The translations under genes were made by a program, and so were the position numbers. The notes beneath the pieces were generated by a model, which ran no database searches, was not told where the DNA came from, and worked only from the letters and a program-made list of their open reading frames with translations. From an uncultured Candidatus Saccharibacteria bacterium (lineage in GTDB: Bacteria; Patescibacteriota; Saccharimonadia; Saccharimonadales; JAGQNJ01): DNA of 35,127 bases. The stretch is taken from contig CAZDDV010000008.1 of assembly GCA_964504275.1 (NCBI GenBank), positions 1 through 35,127 on the forward strand. The letters run 5' to 3'. This document shows, in pieces, positions 9,378-33,669 of the stretch; position 1 is the stretch's first letter; the number at the start of each line of letters is the position of its first letter.

Positions 9378-12272
9378 TTAAGCCGCTTTTTTGAGCGAAA
9401 TCGCCAGTTCGGAGCCTTCGACTTTTACGGTAACTTCAAATCCGCTGTTTACTTCGTTAGGTAGTCTTGTGGTTAGCGTTTCGTGTTTGATTGTGTCCGC
9501 GTGCTCATCAATGGCCTTTTGCAGTTCCTTGTCATCTGTTGTGAGCGCAAGTTCAATACGATCATCTACTTGCAGCTCGGCCGCTTTGCGCGCGCTCTGA
9601 ATATGCCGCACAACTTCGCGCATCATTCCTTCGCGCCTGAGCGTCGGTGTTAGTGTGAAGTCAATAAGAACGTGCGTACTTTTATCAACTTCGCTATTGC
9701 CCGTTGCAAAAGTAAAATCAATATTAGTTTCTTCACAGATAATTGCCTTCAGCTCATCCTGTAATTCCACGTTCGTGGTAATTTTTGAGTTACCGGCAAG
9801 ACGCTGTCTGACCTTATATTCACGCCCCTTCTCTGCGCGTTGAGACAAAGCACCGTTGATAAGATCTCTCACGAACTCCATGTTAGTGATAAGCACCTTG
9901 TTGATTGCTCCGCCTCCTGGCCAGTCTTCTAGGTGAACGGATTCACGGCCTGTAAACTTCTGGAACAGCTCCTCGGCCAAAAATGGCGTAAAGGGCGCCA
10001 TGGTCAAACTAAGTCGAACTAGCACGTAGTGAAGCGTTTTGTAGGCGTCGTTCTTGTCGGCATCGTCGTCACTCTTCCAGAATCGCTTGCGAGATCGGCG
10101 GACATACCAGTTACTGGCGTCTTCGATAAACTCCAAAATCGGCTTCATCGCATTTGGCAGATCATACTTTTGCATGTGTTCGTCAACTTCGTGCGTCAGC
10201 TGATGTACGCGCGAAACAATCCATTCGTCCAGCGGGTTTTTCAGCTCAGCACTTGGGTCTTCGAGTTTGCCATTCCATTTCCAGCCGTCAACATCAGCGT
10301 ACATGGTAAAGAAGTCGTACATATTCCAAATCATCGACAGTTTGCGATTTACGTCCGAGACTTCTTTGTCTTGCAGCGTAAAATCCTCGCCGTTCAAAAG
10401 TGGGCTCGAGGCCAGCAAAAATCTTAGGCTATCCGCTGAAAACGTATCCATGAGTTCGTTCGGATCAGTATAGTTGCCGTAGCTTTTGCTCATCTTGCGG
10501 CCATCATTGCCAGCGAGCGTACCGGTAGTAATTACGTTTTTGAATGAATATGTGTCAAATAGTGCAATGTTTACAGCATGCATGTAGTAAAACCACGCTC
10601 TAGTTTGTGCGATATATTCAACGATGAAATCGCCCGGAAAATTAGCCTCAAACTTTTCTTTATTCTCGAACGGATAGTGAAACTGTGCAAACGGCATTGA
10701 GCCCGCTTCGAACCAGCTATCCATTACCTTATCAATCCGCGTGTACTTTAGGCCATCTATTGTAAATGTAACATCATCAATCCACGGCCGGTGATAATCA
10801 TCCAGTTCTTTGCCCGATAACTCTTTAAGTTCGGCATAACTTCCCACAACTTTAACGTGCTCTTTTCCGTCTTTATCGGTGGCTTTCCATACCGGCATTG
10901 CGGTTGCCCAAAATCGATCGCGCGAGATGTTCCAGTCTGGTGCCGTTTCAATTGTTTTAGCAAAGCGCCCGTTCTTGAGATGCTCTGGGAACCAGTTAAT
11001 TGGCTGATTTTTCTCTAACATTTTTGTGCGCTGGCCATCGATATCCATAAACCAACTGGGGTGGGCACGGTACATGAGCTTTGTGCCACAGCGGTGACAG
11101 TGCGGATAACTGTGCAGAATATAGTCAATTTTCCAGACAACGCCCTTTTCTTTCAGGTCTTTGGCAATCTGTTTGTTAATCTCCCAAACGTTTTCGCCTT
11201 TCCAGTCGCCTTCGGTGAACACACCGTTTTGATCCAGCGTGTGTACGACTGGTATTCTATTTTCTTTGGCGAGCTCAAAGTCTTCTTCTCCGTACGCCGG
11301 CGCAAGATGCACAATTCCCGTACCATCGTCGGCGCTCACATAATCTGCATGCCATACTTTGTGCGCATTCTCGCCCCTGTCGGCAAAAAGTGGTTCGTAA
11401 GATTGGCCAACCAGATCCTTACCTCTTAAAGTTCTGGTAACTTCGTGGTCAAGCGGTTGGTGTTTTTCATCAACAAGCACTTTTTCGAGAAGTTCTTTTG
11501 CCAAAATAAATTGTTCGTCGCCAACTTTAACCTCGACGTATTCAAGGTCTTTGTTAACGGCAACTGCCGTATTTCCAGGCAATGTCCACGGTGTTGTCGT
11601 CCAAGCCAGTAGCGTTGATCCGTCTTCTAGCTTAAATTTTACATACACGCTTGGCTCGGTGATGTCTTGATATGCACCCGAATCCATTGTAACTTCGGCT
11701 TTTGAAAGCGGCGTGCCGTCGAGCGTGCAGTACATCAAAACCTTTTCGCCCTCGTAGATTTTGCCTTTTTCGTACAATGTTTTAAACGCCCACCAGATAC
11801 TTTCCATGTAATCTTTGTCCATTGTTTTATACGCGCCCTTAAAATCGACCCAGCGGCCAATACGATCGACGACGTCTTCCCATTCGCTACTGGTTTGCAC
11901 CATGTTGTCGCGGGTGGCGTTAATGTACTTTTCAATTCCGTACTCAATTACCTCTTGGCGCGAGTGAATACCAAGTTTTTTCTCGGTAAAACGCTCGGCT
12001 GGCAAACCATGACAATCCCAGCCCCATACGCGTTCCACTCGCTTGCCTTTCATAGTTTGATATCTGGGCACAATGTCTTTTACGATCGAACTAAGCAGCG
12101 TTCCGTGGTGAGGCGAACCCGAAATAAATGGCGGGCCGTCATAAAACACATACGAATTATCTTTTGGCCGCAAGTCGACCGACCTCTCAAACGTTTTGTT
12201 CTTTTTCCACTGAACAACGAGGTCTTTTTCGTACTCAATCGCTTTTCGCCGTGATCCTGATGTAAATTTCAT
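9378..12272 (-). CDS. ileS: Isoleucine--tRNA ligase (IleRS2-like)
   Basis: FYDGPPF, HIGH-equivalent HHGT, GWDCHGLP, WTTTPWTLP, GTGIVHLAP, DWNISRDRFW, KMSKS. The C-terminus (REG..RE....IQ..RK...L.V.DRI) has no zinc finger, as in IleRS2. Confidence 0.96.
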   Translation of the reverse strand: MKFTSGSRRKAIEYEKDLVVQWKKNKTFERSVDLRPKDNSYVFYDGPPFISGSPHHGTLLSSIVKDIVPRYQTMKGKRVERVWGWDCHGLPAERFTEKKLGIHSRQEVIEYGIEKYINATRDNMVQTSSEWEDVVDRIGRWVDFKGAYKTMDKDYMESIWWAFKTLYEKGKIYEGEKVLMYCTLDGTPLSKAEVTMDSGAYQDITEPSVYVKFKLEDGSTLLAWTTTPWTLPGNTAVAVNKDLEYVEVKVGDEQFILAKELLEKVLVDEKHQPLDHEVTRTLRGKDLVGQSYEPLFADRGENAHKVWHADYVSADDGTGIVHLAPAYGEEDFELAKENRIPVVHTLDQNGVFTEGDWKGENVWEINKQIAKDLKEKGVVWKIDYILHSYPHCHRCGTKLMYRAHPSWFMDIDGQRTKMLEKNQPINWFPEHLKNGRFAKTIETAPDWNISRDRFWATAMPVWKATDKDGKEHVKVVGSYAELKELSGKELDDYHRPWIDDVTFTIDGLKYTRIDKVMDSWFEAGSMPFAQFHYPFENKEKFEANFPGDFIVEYIAQTRAWFYYMHAVNIALFDTYSFKNVITTGTLAGNDGRKMSKSYGNYTDPNELMDTFSADSLRFLLASSPLLNGEDFTLQDKEVSDVNRKLSMIWNMYDFFTMYADVDGWKWNGKLEDPSAELKNPLDEWIVSRVHQLTHEVDEHMQKYDLPNAMKPILEFIEDASNWYVRRSRKRFWKSDDDADKNDAYKTLHYVLVRLSLTMAPFTPFLAEELFQKFTGRESVHLEDWPGGGAINKVLITNMEFVRDLINGALSQRAEKGREYKVRQRLAGNSKITTNVELQDELKAIICEETNIDFTFATGNSEVDKSTHVLIDFTLTPTLRREGMMREVVRHIQSARKAAELQVDDRIELALTTDDKELQKAIDEHADTIKHETLTTRLPNEVNSGFEVTVKVEGSELAISLKKAA

Positions 12273-12628
12273 TATGCTTCTTCCTTATCGAATTTATGTT
12301 TTTTAGGGTCAAATGCTGGACCACATGGAATAATCAAATCCATGTCTCCGCCCCAACGAAATCGCTCAAGGGGTTCAACATGAACAACATCGCCAACTTT
12401 TAGATCATGATGTTCGCCTGTTTTAGTCTCGATGTATCCCTCACCCCGAATCACCACTGCCATTTCGTGCGATTCCTCCAGATAGCCGTAGCCAGACGCT
12501 GGAAATTTTCCGCGAATAAAAATCTTGGCAATATCTATTTTATCGGTGCTCGATGGTTTAAACTCTTTACCATAGCAGATATCGCTGTTTTTGAATTCTA
12601 CGCCGTCTTTATCTGACCACTTTTGCAT
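12272..12628 (-). CDS. Cupin-domain protein
   Basis: E..VVIRGEG and LKVGDVVHVEP..R cupin-like motifs; its TAA overlaps the ileS ATG (TAATG). Confidence 0.82.
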   Translation of the reverse strand: MQKWSDKDGVEFKNSDICYGKEFKPSSTDKIDIAKIFIRGKFPASGYGYLEESHEMAVVIRGEGYIETKTGEHHDLKVGDVVHVEPLERFRWGGDMDLIIPCGPAFDPKKHKFDKEEA

Positions 12629-12652
12629 ATTTGCCTTTCTTGCTGTATTTCT

Positions 12653-12912
12653 AAAAATTAAAAATCACTTCTTTTGTCTATCAGATCCCAAGGGTTCTCG
12701 GGAGGTACCATCTGATTTCCAAAAGAAGTGATTCTCACTCTTCTAGCACTTTCTTGCCGATTAACGGATCGGGTTCCGGAAGATTCTACTGGGCTTGATT
12801 ATTGAATCGTGAGCCGTTCTTTCTTCTCCGTTCTCCTTCGAAGTTTTAACGAAGAAGGATCGTAGCTGATGACTACTCAAGCGGATTTCCAAATTATCGC
12901 AACATCGTTGCA
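12653..12912 (-). ncRNA. T-box riboswitch leader of the cupin-ileS operon
   Basis: Antiterminator AUCAGA-UGGUACC-UCCC...GGGA-UCUGAU (12680-12716); Stem II with GAAC/CAGUA S-turn (12777-12830); Stem IIA CCGAU-CCGUUA-AUCGG (12757-12772); U-tract at 12653-12662; -10 TACAAT at 12919-12924. Confidence 0.9.
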
Positions 12913-12936
12913 AGGTGCATTGTACAACAGTTTTTA

Positions 12937-13200
12937 CTAGCCCACAAGATAGCCAGCGACGTCATTGACTAATGGCAAATGCTCGCCAGTCCAGCTTTTT
13001 GCCAAGCTGCCGTTATCCTGAATTGCCAACACCGAAGGAAACTGCATGACATCGTACAATGCAGCCGTCGATGCGCCTTCGCGAGTATCAATACTCATGA
13101 GCTCTATCCTCTTATCTGTTCGTGATTTAAAATCATGAACAAATTCTTCTACACTGCGGGCGAATTCAGAGTTTGGCCTGTAGAGTACGAGTGCTTTCAT
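12937..13200 (-). CDS. Small thioredoxin-fold-like protein lacking cysteines
   Basis: Pattern LYDVMQFPSVLAI..G resembles the thioredoxin cis-Pro strand; no Cys; extended -10 TGgTATTCT 7 nt before the ATG. Confidence 0.7.
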   Translation of the reverse strand: MKALVLYRPNSEFARSVEEFVHDFKSRTDKRIELMSIDTREGASTAALYDVMQFPSVLAIQDNGSLAKSWTGEHLPLVNDVAGYLVG

Positions 13201-13245
13201 ACCCTACAGAATACCATAAGTACAATGGAGACAAGCTGCGGTTTT

Positions 13246-13302
13246 TCTCATCGCGCGGGACCCGAAATAAATTCGTTCCTCCGGTCGCTCTTTGCTCTCG
13301 AA
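13246..13302 (-). repeat. Dispersed ~57-nt structured repeat, copy A
   Basis: Minus strand TTCGAGAGCAAAGAGCGACCGGAGGAACGAATTTATTTCGGGTCCCGCGCGATGAGA aligns by eye with plus strand 33320-33376. Confidence 0.65.
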
Positions 13303-13314
13303 CACTAACAAATA

Positions 13315-16080
13315 CTATGAACAGCCGGTGGTAGATCCGCACGAAGTACAGACATAGCAGCTACCAGCTTTTTGCGTTTGGTTGCCGCAGTTGTAGCACA
13401 TTGGCGCAGTGTCATCTGATTTAACAGAGCTGGTTGTTTTCTTCGGTGCTGCCGTAGCAACTGGTGCTACTGGCATAACCGGTTTTACTTCTTCAACAAC
13501 CTCTACTTCGGCCACCTTTGGCTCTTCTTGTAGCAAAGTCGTTTGCTCGTTTGGCATATCATCAATCGAAGCTAATCCCAACTCTAGGCGATCATCAAAC
13601 GACAAGTACGTCAGCGCAAGTCGTCGGAAGATGTAATCAACCAGCGACGAAGCAGTTCGAATCTCTGGATCGTCGGTGATACCGGCTGGGGCAAACGACA
13701 TATGCGCCATTCCCTTGATATAGGTTTTGATTGGCACGCCATATTGCAAACCGTAACTGATTGAGCGACCAAATGAATCCATTAGTCCGGCTAGCGTTGA
13801 GCCAATTTTGGCGATACTAACAAACAGCTCACCCGGCGTTCCGTCTTCGTACTCCCCAACGGTAAAGTAACCGTGCAGCCCTGCCACTGTAAACGAAAAC
13901 GTTTTTGCGTTGCGAACTTTCGGCAATGCCCGGCGAACTGCGCCCTTAACAACAATGCGGTCAGCGGCTGGGACAATACCCGGTTTTTCAGCTGCGCCAG
14001 CTTTTTTAGCCATCGATAGTGGCTGTGCAACTTTACAGTTATCACGGTAAATCGCAACGGCTTTGAGACCAAGTTTCCAGGCCTCGATGTGTAATTGCTC
14101 GACGTCTTCTACGGTAGCTTCTTCTGGCATGTTAACCGTTTTACTGATTGCACCAGATATAAACGGCTGTACTGCGCCCATCATTTTTACGTGACCCATG
14201 TAGTGAATTGAATTGTCGCCCATCGAGCAAGCAAACACTGGTTCGTGCTCTTTTTTGAGTTTTGGAGCGCCGAGTATTGTTTTTTCAACATCAATGTAGT
14301 TAACGATGTCGTCAACTTCTTTGGGACTATAGCCGAGCATCTTGAGCGCTCGTGGCACAGTTTGGTTAACAATGCTCATAGTTCCACCACCAACGAGTTT
14401 TTTCACCTTCACGAGACCGAGATCTGGCTCGATACCAGTAGTGTCACAATCCATCATCAGCCCAATGGTGCCGGTTGGCGCAAGCACGCTGGCCTGCGAG
14501 TTACGAACACCGAACATCTGCGAAAGCTCCACTGCCTCATCCCACGAATGAGCTGCGGCGCTCAATAATTCTTCCGAAACCGAGCTTGCATCAATCTTAG
14601 ACACTTCTTCGCGGTGCATTTTTAGTACGTGTAGCATGCCGTCGCGATCTTTGTGGAATCCAGCAAATGGACCAACTCGCTCGGCGATTTTTGCACTGGT
14701 TGCATAAGCATGCCCAGTCAAAAGCGCTGTAATTGCTGCGGCAATTGAGCGACCTTCGTGCGAATCATATGGCAAACCAAGAGCCATCAGTAGTGCGCCA
14801 AGGTTTGCGTAGCCAATTCCCAGCTCGCGGTATGCCTTAGCAGTTTTGCCAATGCTCTCTGTTGGGTATTCAGAATAACCCACTAAAATTTCTTGTGCTG
14901 TAAATATTACTTCAACCGTGTGCTTAAATGCTTCGACATCAAACGAACCGTCTTTTTTAAGGTATTTCAGTAAGTTGATTGACGCGAGGTTACAGGCGGA
15001 GTTGTCCAAGTGCATGTATTCGCTGCAAGGGTTGCTGGCGTTGATACGACCAGCATTTGGAGCGGTGTGCCACTTGTTAATGGTGGTGTCGAACTGCATG
15101 CCTGGATCGGCGCATTCCCACGCCGCCTGGTTAATCTGTCGGAATAGTTCACGAGCTTTAACGCGGCGAACTGCTTTGCCGGTTTTTACGGCGCGGAGTT
15201 CGTAATCTTCGTCGTTCTCAACAGCTTGCATAAATTCATCCGTGACGCGCACTGAGTTGTTAGCATTTTGATATTGAACAGAGAAAATATCTTTGCCGTC
15301 CAGTGTCATGTCGTAGCCAGCTTCCTCAAGCGCACGGGCTTTTCGCTCCTCGATTGCTTTACACCAAATAAATTCTTCGACATCAGGGTGATCAATATTC
15401 AAAATCACCATTTTGGCGGCGCGGCGAGTTTTGCCGCCGCTCTTGATTGCACCAGCTGACGCGTCAGCTCCACGCATAAAGCTCAAGGGGCCAGAGGCCG
15501 TACCAGCACTTTTACCAAGTTTTTCTACCGATGAGCGAAGCACGCTCAGGTTAATACCTGAGCCAGAACCACCTTTAAAAATCATGCCTTCTTCTCGGTA
15601 CCAGTTTAAAATTGCTGGCATGGTGTCTTCGATACCCAAAATAAAACACGCACTTGCTTGCTGCGCTCGCTCTGGCGCACCGATATTAAACCACACCGGC
15701 GAATTAAACGCCGCGCGTTGTGTTGCCAAAATATACTTAAGCTCTTCGCGGAAATCTTCTGCTTCTGTGTCCGAAGCAAAATAATCTTCTTGTGAACCGT
15801 GGCGAGTAACTGTGTCTGCAACGCGATCAATCAGATCTTTGAGGGATTTTTCGCGCCCCTCAGTACCCGGCGTACCGGTAAAATATTTTTGCGCCACAAT
15901 GTTAATCGCATTGAGTGACCAACCCTCTGGAAATTCAATGTCTCGTTGTTCAAAAACTGGCTTCTGAGTCATCGGATTCATAATTAATGAATCGCGCTTT
16001 GTCCACTTTAAGGCGTCGTAGCCCTTCGTTTTTGGCTTTGTAAATAATCGGCCCAGGCTTAGGCTCGTTGTTTGTCCCAT
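13315..16080 (-). CDS. nrdJ: Class II (adenosylcobalamin-dependent) ribonucleotide reductase
   Basis: SACF, GGKTRRAAKM, NPCSE, APTGT, AISKTVN, AIYRD, a TSCPD-like C-terminal region and terminal CxxC...CxxCxxC...GCS. No radical-subunit gene is adjacent. Confidence 0.95.
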   Translation of the reverse strand: MGQTTSLSLGRLFTKPKTKGYDALKWTKRDSLIMNPMTQKPVFEQRDIEFPEGWSLNAINIVAQKYFTGTPGTEGREKSLKDLIDRVADTVTRHGSQEDYFASDTEAEDFREELKYILATQRAAFNSPVWFNIGAPERAQQASACFILGIEDTMPAILNWYREEGMIFKGGSGSGINLSVLRSSVEKLGKSAGTASGPLSFMRGADASAGAIKSGGKTRRAAKMVILNIDHPDVEEFIWCKAIEERKARALEEAGYDMTLDGKDIFSVQYQNANNSVRVTDEFMQAVENDEDYELRAVKTGKAVRRVKARELFRQINQAAWECADPGMQFDTTINKWHTAPNAGRINASNPCSEYMHLDNSACNLASINLLKYLKKDGSFDVEAFKHTVEVIFTAQEILVGYSEYPTESIGKTAKAYRELGIGYANLGALLMALGLPYDSHEGRSIAAAITALLTGHAYATSAKIAERVGPFAGFHKDRDGMLHVLKMHREEVSKIDASSVSEELLSAAAHSWDEAVELSQMFGVRNSQASVLAPTGTIGLMMDCDTTGIEPDLGLVKVKKLVGGGTMSIVNQTVPRALKMLGYSPKEVDDIVNYIDVEKTILGAPKLKKEHEPVFACSMGDNSIHYMGHVKMMGAVQPFISGAISKTVNMPEEATVEDVEQLHIEAWKLGLKAVAIYRDNCKVAQPLSMAKKAGAAEKPGIVPAADRIVVKGAVRRALPKVRNAKTFSFTVAGLHGYFTVGEYEDGTPGELFVSIAKIGSTLAGLMDSFGRSISYGLQYGVPIKTYIKGMAHMSFAPAGITDDPEIRTASSLVDYIFRRLALTYLSFDDRLELGLASIDDMPNEQTTLLQEEPKVAEVEVVEEVKPVMPVAPVATAAPKKTTSSVKSDDTAPMCYNCGNQTQKAGSCYVCTSCGSTTGCS

Positions 16081-33552: not shown

Positions 33553-33669
33553 ATTTGGCACCGTGCTATTTTCCCAGGGGTGAACCCCCAAGTATTGTAA
33601 CCGCTGAGAGGCTTAACTGCTGTGTTCGGCATGGGAACAGGTGTTTCCCTCTCGCTATGGGCACCAAAT
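33553..33669 (-). rRNA. rrf: 5S ribosomal RNA
   Basis: ACACCUGUUCCCAUGCCGAACACAGCAGUUAAG core; complementary ends UUUGGUGC/GUGCCAAA. Ends are approximate. Confidence 0.97.

Follow-up and report, generated by a model that had tools for sequence, protein, structure and literature searches.

A T-box leader of Candidatus Saccharibacteria in which the predicted terminator encloses the antiterminator and shares bases with Stem III

Results

The leader and its operon

We analyzed a stretch of 35,127 nt from an uncultured Candidatus Saccharibacteria bacterium (GCA_964504275.1, contig CAZDDV010000008.1, positions 1-35,127; hereafter the window), whose genome amounts to 873 kb in 40 contigs. On the minus strand, the gap between an open reading frame (ORF) of 87 amino acids (13200-12937) and a cupin-like ORF (12628-12272) is filled by a leader that appears to be an isoleucine (Ile) T-box riboswitch. 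The helix that runs into its U-tract does not use the strands of the antiterminator; it wraps around the intact antiterminator and takes its 5' arm from Stem III. We refer to this arrangement as the enclosing wiring.

The cupin-like ORF, presumably the first regulated gene, matched the Pfam families Cupin_3 and Cupin_2 at E values of about 2e-4, under the cut-offs of both. Its stop codon is overlapped by the start codon of a second ORF, which matched tRNA-synt_1 at 3.7e-112 and, in addition, Anticodon_1 and DUF5915. We read this class I aminoacyl-tRNA synthetase as IleRS from its domain make-up and from the AUC specifier of the leader. The features of the leader and the operon are given below, with the source of each; MFE stands for the minimum free energy fold.

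12888-12650, minus: Ile T-box leader, upstream of the cupin-like ORF and ileS
12876-12862, minus: short Stem I hairpin GUAG-UCAUCAG-CUAC (sequence and MFE fold)
12861-12780, minus: extra hairpin CCUUC...GAAGG, then the Stem II region with S-turn-like GAGAAGAAAG / CAGUAGAA (RF00230 alignment and by-eye comparison with relatives)
12779-12757, minus: candidate Stem IIA/B pseudoknot CCGGAACCCGAUCCGUUAAUCGG (aligned to the RF00230 IIA hairpin)
12751-12747, minus: 5' purine string AAGUG, the RRRxG motif (sequence)
12746-12719, minus: Stem III hairpin CUAGAAGAGUGA-GAA-UCAC-U-UCUUUUGG (RNAfold of the transcript cut at 12677)
12733-12720, minus: 5' arm of the outer (putative terminator) helix, AAUCACUUCUUUUG, equal to the loop and 3' arm of Stem III; reaches 12737 in the MFE fold
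12718-12717, minus: AA linker (sequence)
12716-12711 with 12685-12680, minus: A1, AUCAGA with UCUGAU (sequence, RF00230 alignment, RNAfold)
12710-12704, minus: T-box bulge UGGUACC (sequence, RF00230 alignment, RNAfold)
12703-12697 with 12692-12686, minus: A2, UCCCGAG with CUUGGGA, loop AACC (sequence, RF00230 alignment, RNAfold)
12676-12663, minus: 3' arm of the outer (putative terminator) helix, CAAAAGAAGUGAUU; reaches 12659 in the MFE fold
12664-12653, minus: U-tract UUUUUAAUUUUU, presumed termination site, adjoining the outer helix (sequence)
12640-12634, minus: Shine-Dalgarno-like AGAAAGG, 3' of the U-tract and unpaired in the RNAfold fold (sequence)
12628-12272, minus: cupin-like ORF, 118 amino acids, ATG at 12628 (ORF list)
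12272-9378, minus: class I aminoacyl-tRNA synthetase, 964 amino acids, read as IleRS (Pfam)

The leader as an isoleucine T-box

In a permissive scan of 501 bases, the Rfam T-box model RF00230 aligned end to end over 12679-12888 of the minus strand at 35.7 bits (E 2.1e-6), and nowhere else in the 873-kb genome was there a T-box-like match. The AUC specifier (12870-12868) and the purine that follows it (A12867) sit in the 7-nt apical loop of a 4-bp Stem I, with the synthetase read as IleRS downstream. By eye, the AUC+A loop was kept in 10 of 11 homologues found by blastn, and Stem I covaried among these homologues (GUAG/CUAC, GCAG/CUGC, GUGG/CCAC and GCGG/CCGU); the IIB pairing CCGAU/AUCGG was likewise read by eye. 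AAGUG, Stem III and AA are all present, as in the RRRxG/AA purine motif around Stem III that PMC7583486 defines, and the bulge UGGUACC lies between a 6-bp A1 and a 7-bp A2. By its discriminator and specifier we therefore filed the leader as a T-box, although its Rfam score fell short. An earlier note on this DNA, made from the sequence alone, had called the element a T-box riboswitch; the end-to-end alignment, the AUC+A, the purine motifs around Stem III, the bulge and the class I synthetase downstream all agree with that call.

The earlier note took the UGGU of the bulge to read an ACCA end, which would suit tRNA-Ile; this match to the discriminator base is a prediction. A gene for the cognate tRNA-Ile(GAU) was not found by aragorn among the 37 tRNAs of the assembly. 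In a relative assembled in one contig (G006), tRNA-Ile(GAU) and tRNA-Ala(UGC) were both absent among all 41 tRNA matches. The missing tRNA genes probably lie in the rRNA spacer.

The outer helix and Stem III

The two arms of the outer helix, 12733-12720 and 12676-12663, pair in 14 of 14 positions by Watson-Crick pairs and enclose the intact antiterminator, with the spacer AGA between the A1 3' strand and the 3' arm. RNAfold of 12640-12760 (minus strand) gave an MFE structure that was a nested hairpin, with an 18-bp outer stem and with A1 and A2 intact, at -43.2 kcal/mol; dinucleotide shuffles had a mean of -22.4 kcal/mol (standard deviation 3.3; z -6.35), and none of 200 was as stable. No downstream complement to the antiterminator 3' strand was found in the stretch from the A1 end (12680) to the start codon (12628), where the arm of the outer helix is the only hairpin-forming partner.

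We also folded the transcript at two lengths. A version ending short of the 3' arm formed Stem III plus the antiterminator (the ON fold, -25.5 kcal/mol), Stem III by itself accounting for -9.5 kcal/mol. The full transcript formed the outer helix (the OFF fold, -42.1 kcal/mol), which lies 16.6 kcal/mol below the ON fold. Because the OFF fold is so much more stable, kinetics or tRNA would have to maintain the ON state, as they do in known T-boxes. The same difference would be expected of an attenuator in which the long hairpin always forms, so that tRNA either has no effect, as in a decayed T-box, or raises termination; with the antiterminator inside the terminator hairpin, whatever stabilizes A1/A2 could indeed stabilize the terminator as well. 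We consider this very unlikely, since the AUC, the UGGNACC bulge, the purine motifs and Stem III are kept across many families of the order, which argues for ongoing selection on tRNA sensing, and since repression of ileS under uncharged tRNA-Ile would be maladaptive. The Staphylococcus aureus ileS leader, moreover, is reported to give more read-through under mupirocin.

The pairing was then followed in close homologues. A blastn search that used the leader as query gave homologues in 12 of the 61 related genomes, the window's own included, and by eye the outer pairing was present with differing sequences in all of them, for instance as UAAUCUCUUUUG/CAAAAGAGAUUA, ACCUCAAAGG/CCUUUGAGGU and GCCAUUUCUU/GAAGAAGUGGC. 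In a MAFFT alignment of the 12, 92.1% of the cells of the outer helix paired and 6 of its 14 pairs changed on both sides, whereas sliding the partner by 1-3 columns left 39-54% paired over the whole structure; the covariation score of the whole structure was reached by none of 500 shuffles. Stem III, of which seven pairs were scored in the same 12 sequences, was 93% and 87% paired, with four pairs changing on both sides. When the 35 best matches were aligned by fitting to the model, 96.8% of the outer helix was paired, against 40-51% for the slid partners over the whole structure, 10 of its 14 pairs showed compensatory changes, and A1 and A2 were 100% and 97% paired, also with compensatory changes. 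Two covarying helices thus share bases, and Stem III and the outer helix are therefore mutually exclusive alternatives.

These results uphold what the earlier note had described of the switch region. Its intact antiterminator with a UGGUACC bulge (12716-12680) holds base for base, and sequence and RNAfold agree that the antiterminator 3' strand is left without a downstream complement. The 14-bp pair placed around the antiterminator, before the U-tract, is found in full and is nested in the MFE fold, where it extends to 18 bp. The proposed sharing of the terminator 5' arm with Stem III was likewise confirmed, the arm being the loop and 3' arm of that hairpin.

Occurrence in the order Saccharimonadales

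A covariance model built on the nested structure was used to search 151 genomes of the order, and it matched 84 of them (77 of the 131 high-quality ones). The scored set comprised 88 matches and the window leader, 89 in all; genome G055 enters the genome count only, its leader being unread. Scoring was done by scripts independent of the alignment made by the model. An outer helix of at least 5 bp was present in the fold ending at the U-tract in 85 of the 89 leaders; A1 was kept in the same fold in 79 of these 85, and a T-rich tail (at least five T among the eight bases after the 3' arm) followed in 82. Conservation of the outer stem in homologous leaders had been set in advance as a check on the earlier note, and the 85 leaders, together with the compensatory changes among the 35 best matches, answer it in its favour.

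In 84 of 88 leaders, a first independent classifier placed the partner of the arm adjoining the U-tract upstream of the bulge. The four exceptions among the 89 leaders scored for the outer helix were L053, an artefact of an early T-run; L090 and L096, with a stand-alone hairpin; and L097, which was ambiguous. In L090 and L096 the stand-alone hairpin and its U-tract begin 0-1 nt past the A1 3' strand, and in another leader, L337, they begin further downstream; all three hairpins overlap the antiterminator little or not at all. The mean energy of the arm-to-arm duplex over the 89 leaders was -13.7 kcal/mol for cognate arms, -6.8 kcal/mol for non-cognate arms and -4.9 kcal/mol for shuffled 3' flanks.

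The bulge was kept in all 89 leaders, as UGGU in 78, UGGA in 10 and UGGC in one. In three leaders UUGGAAAC also fits the bulge pattern. UGGA occurs in L027, L028, L029, L032, L066, L068, L073, L082, L083 and L088, and UGGC in L077; these bulges predict another discriminator base in the tRNA-Ile of those genomes.

A search of the same 151 genomes with RF00230, which is unbiased to the outer helix, matched 22 genomes, none of them at the cut-off. Eight loci were found by RF00230 only: three were enclosing without Stem III, three were canonical (L338, L340 and L341), one had a stand-alone hairpin and one was of another design. Genome G124 holds both wirings, enclosing in L053 and canonical in L340. 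In L339 (G026:C1:83485-84080), a T-box-like locus with the bulge UGGGACC, it is apparently the bulge that makes up the hairpin at the U-tract (GGGACC...GGUCC, then U7, inside the A2 region), yet another wiring.

The first gene after the homologous Ile leaders varies. It is ileS directly in L003 and L009, a cupin-like ORF in the window and L013, a HAD-like ORF starting MKYKAIIIDLDG in L004 and L012, and an ORF starting MKFK... in L007, L008, L010 and L011.

Other lineages of the phylum and the Bacillota

Among genomes sampled from the phylum, the covariance model matched 16 of 151, and 10 of these lie outside the order. By eye, the 11 loci in these 10 genomes comprised eight enclosing leaders, one canonical leader (L110) and two unclear ones (L104, which is Val-type with GUC, and L108). 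Four of the enclosing leaders have a UGGA bulge and ThrRS-like N-termini downstream (L102, L106, L107 and L111), and four were grouped as Ile-type (L105, L109 and L113, together with L103, whose specificity is unclear).

As a control across phyla, we collected sites with the canonical T-box word AGGGTGGTACCGCG, taking one genome per species, which gave at least 121 loci, mostly from Bacillota, Chloroflexota and Actinomycetota. Among the matches listed, the classifier called 96 of 126 motif sites canonical, 21 without a terminator and nine enclosing, so that 96 of the 105 sites with a terminator were canonical. On inspection four of the nine enclosing calls stood (L150, L170, L184 and L210), with the gene start right after the U-tract. 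The other five (L148, L157, L182, L214 and L217) were artefacts or ambiguous, as was L284.

These figures bear on the possibility that a canonical terminator, using the A1/A2 3' strands, was overlooked in the window. Such terminators are known in the order (L338, L340 and L341) and in the phylum (L110). However, the only hairpin-forming partner between 12680 and 12628 is the outer arm, and the classifier that favoured the upstream arm in 84 of 88 leaders returned the canonical answer in most of the listed controls. We rejected a hidden canonical switch on sequence, as scarcely credible.

The four Bacillota genomes in which enclosing leaders were followed up had been picked for having one such leader each and are a biased sample; of their 27 T-boxes, 23 were canonical and three truly enclosing. 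L150 is from Ligilactobacillus aviarius and precedes an AlaRS-like start, L170 is from a Jeotgalicoccus metagenome-assembled genome (G316) and precedes an IleRS-like start, and L184, L294 and L298 are three enclosing leaders in one uncultured Bacilli genome. Homologues of the L170 leader were present in 41 of 41 genomes of its family. When 30 of these loci (L307-L336), with 23 distinct discriminators, were folded, 22 of the 23 were enclosing, and the 23rd was shortened by an internal T-run. Taken together, the enclosing wiring is rare overall (about 4 in 100 of the motif sample, among the matches listed) but fixed in some lineages, and it is not peculiar to Saccharibacteria or the candidate phyla radiation (CPR), being found in Bacillota as well.

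Comparison with known T-boxes

The leader is like the class III T-boxes (ileS of Nocardia farcinica, Mycobacterium tuberculosis and M. smegmatis) in its short, platform-less Stem I, the AUC in the apical loop, Stem II, the IIA/B pseudoknot, the RRRxG-Stem III-AA string, A1, the UGGN bulge and A2, and in its predicted control of ileS. Class III is defined by a short Stem I with an apical-loop specifier and a required Stem II, the loop being 5-6 nt (PMC10482949). The window leader has the 4-bp hairpin with AUC in its loop, and its Stem II and IIA/B align to RF00230, but the loop measures 7 nt. The class III ileS T-boxes are described as acting on translation, by a sequestrator in which the 3' half of the anti-sequestrator re-pairs with the Shine-Dalgarno region (PMC7583486, PMC12647780). 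In contrast, the window leader has a predicted intrinsic terminator 5' of a free Shine-Dalgarno sequence, and A1/A2 stay intact.

The likeness to class III raises the question of control at the level of translation or mRNA stability; the hairpin and U-tract would then act on the access of ribosomes or on the decay of the mRNA, in the manner of the class III/IV ileS T-boxes of actinobacteria. The decoding half does resemble that of class III, which "mostly regulate translation initiation" (PMC10482949). Yet AGAAAGG (12640-12634) lies past the U-tract and has no partner in the fold, and in 82 of 85 leaders the T-rich tail comes directly after the 3' arm, so we hold this alternative to be highly improbable.

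With the class I/II T-boxes (Bacillus subtilis tyrS and glyQS; RF00230) the leader has in common the hairpin with a U-tract, the discriminator core and, by prediction, a co-transcriptional ON switch. In their canonical transcriptional platform, the A1/A2 3' strands become the 5' strand of the terminator (PMC7583486), whereas in the window leader the arm at the U-tract pairs upstream of A1, within Stem III, and A1/A2 persist in the terminator fold. The long platform-bearing Stem I is missing as well.

The enclosing T-boxes of Bacillota have the same topology, with a 5' arm from Stem III and a 3' arm after A1, then the U-tract and the gene start, but their leaders are longer. The part of Stem III that the outer helix re-pairs also differs: it is the loop and the 3' arm in the window leader, but the 5' arm and loop, or the entire Stem III, in L170 and its relatives. 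The L170 ileS leader scores 54 bits, while the other T-boxes in the same four Bacillota genomes exceed the Rfam cut-off. The window leader is a variant in two respects: its short Stem I goes together with a predicted terminator, and this terminator encloses the antiterminator and would compete with Stem III.

Genes upstream of the leader and at the contig end

The 87-amino-acid ORF upstream of the leader (12937-13200, minus) is without a Pfam match; its C-terminal motif reappears just upstream of the leader in several relatives. Further upstream lies a ribonucleotide reductase of class II (B12-type), which has a TSCPD domain (13315-16080, minus). A 5S rRNA gene (33553-33668, minus) and a 23S rRNA gene truncated by the contig end (34000-35127, minus) close the window.

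Discussion

We consider it probable that the leader is a transcription-attenuating, tRNA-Ile-sensing T-box for the cupin-ileS operon, whose terminator competes with Stem III and the purine latch and not with A1/A2. The architecture, an enclosing outer helix that shares the bases of Stem III, is well supported; the termination, its dependence on tRNA and the docking step we infer. During transcription, Stem III and the antiterminator would fold first. The emerging CAAAAGAAGUGAUU would then pair with the loop and 3' arm of Stem III and displace the 5' arm, and A1/A2 would be extended downward into one long hairpin ending at the U-tract, which would act as an intrinsic terminator. Uncharged tRNA-Ile would be held by the specifier, with its NCCA end paired to the bulge. 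This pairing would let the purines that flank Stem III dock on the tRNA-bulge duplex, and docking would lock Stem III, and hence the terminator 5' arm, letting the polymerase pass the U-tract. With charged tRNA, or with none, Stem III would be undocked and open to strand displacement, and the far more stable terminator would form. A1/A2 would be present in both states, and the switch would lie in whether RRRxG and AA come together.

A readout of this kind has been described. In the M. tuberculosis ileS T-box, single-molecule Förster resonance energy transfer is reported to show that the linker and Stem III stay docked with uncharged tRNA and that a charged-tRNA mimic frees Stem III, the docking of Stem III and the linker being the aminoacylation-sensitive step (PMC12647780). 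By analogy, Stem III docking as seen in M. tuberculosis would be the readout that the enclosing wiring needs.

Several results weigh against the reading of the leader as an attenuator of this kind. The score of 35.7 bits does not reach the RF00230 gathering score of 93, so that the default Rfam scan of the window lists no T-box and, at curated thresholds, gives rRNA only; so low a score is in keeping with the absence of a long Stem I, and the short-Stem-I form is not covered by the curated model. At the foot of A2 the leader has U12703-A12686 instead of the G-U wobble that is described as a steric sensor. Among 34 distinct relatives this pair is G-U in 13, U-A in 13, A-U in three, G-C in one and unpaired in four; a G-C pair at the A2 foot is also found in working T-boxes (PMC11404447). 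No sigma-70 promoter was found in a consensus scan of 12200-13400, and a simple terminator scan of the same region, which admits loops of 3-8 nt only, omits the U-tract hairpin because its "loop" exceeds the 8-nt limit. The model-fitted alignment leans toward the structure, and the covariation counts come mostly from best-scoring or model-fitted, related sequences. For only 28 of the 89 leaders did the cognate 3' arm rank as the best or tied-best partner, and for 51 of 89 it ranked within the first five; it is thus often not the single best partner, and many of the arms are near-identical. Canonical terminators coexist in the order (three of the eight leaders found by RF00230 only), so the enclosing design is unforced. 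Finally, 16 of the 85 leaders with an outer helix have no local Stem III hairpin.

The last of these points changes the mechanism as it was first stated. In the other 69 of the 85 leaders a local Stem III hairpin is present, and the outer helix uses 3-12 (median 9) of the bases paired in Stem III. Because 16 leaders lack the hairpin, the locking or stabilizing of Stem III cannot be the general mechanism. The clearest of the leaders without Stem III (L075, L080, L081, L085, L089, L092-L094 and others) have the layout ...UAAGUCCC-AA-A1-UGGUACC-A2-A1'-N4-7-GGGAC-UUUUU, with only about 16 nt from the pseudoknot to A1. The terminator 5' arm stands directly between the RRRx and AA purines, in the place of Stem III. 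In L075, L080, L081, L085, L086, L089, L092-L094 and L342-L344, a strand of 5-7 nt, often GUCCC, pairs with GGGAC just before the U-tract.

In these leaders, the outer helix would separate the two strings of purines by the same logic. Since RRRxG and AA come to lie at the two far ends of its duplex, the outer helix is incompatible with a continuous purine string, with Stem III or without it. One principle, competition with the purine latch, would therefore cover leaders of both kinds, because the outer helix breaks the purine string in both. The earlier note had proposed that Stem III competes with the terminator and that uncharged tRNA acts by stabilizing Stem III. The competition is borne out by the two exclusive, covarying helices; stabilization of Stem III does not hold as a general account, given the 16 leaders that lack the hairpin, and competition for the purines fits both groups.

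Leaders without Stem III also bear on a steric account, in which the outer helix terminates transcription, a tRNA on A1 is too bulky or rigid for the arms to close or to enter the exit channel, and Stem III is irrelevant. Of the 16 leaders without Stem III, 11 have a short outer helix of 5-8 bp, so that A1 would have to join the terminator stem near the polymerase, and tRNA is reported to stack coaxially on A1 (PMC7583486). In the window and most relatives, however, the outer helix is 12-18 bp, enough to terminate alone and far from the tRNA, and the steric account gives no reason why the 5' arm of this helix should so regularly overlap a covarying Stem III. We regard it as unlikely, and we keep competition with the purine latch as the preferred mechanism.

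More broadly, the data raise the possibility of a second, general and overlooked T-box wiring, a "latch-competing" platform in which the terminator wraps an antiterminator that never unfolds and competes only with the juxtaposition of the purines, the contact through which aminoacylation is reported to be sensed. It would be the default in Saccharibacteria, would recur in the phylum and in Bacillota, and would have a minimal form without Stem III. We put this generalization forward tentatively, as one that could well be right but that we would not yet call probable. Either descent or convergence may account for the wirings of Saccharibacteria and Bacillota.

We found no publication on a T-box in Saccharibacteria, and none with "T-box" was among the best literature matches for Patescibacteria, CPR or TM7. 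An enclosing terminator was not described in the T-box literature searched, which did not extend to three older papers. One of these, the 1997 study of S. aureus ileS by Grundy et al., reportedly names "several critical differences" in that leader, and it may already show the enclosing wiring.

Among the relatives of the window organism, the enclosing wiring is the rule. No leader of the order reached the Rfam cut-off in the 151 genomes, and TBDB sought short-Stem-I forms in Actinobacteria or among class I model detections (PMC7778990). Therefore, what would be the main switch by which these reduced, host-dependent bacteria sense amino acids is missing from the listings. Because the enclosing wiring also appears in cultivable Bacillota, it could be tested at the bench without growing the epibiont. 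In the textbook T-box, tRNA protects A1/A2 from disruption by the terminator. In the enclosing wiring, A1/A2 would survive both states, and the terminator would displace only Stem III, or just the strand between the purines. If this is true, the enclosing leaders would offer a clean natural test of the "latch" idea that has come from crystal, electron cryomicroscopy and single-molecule work.

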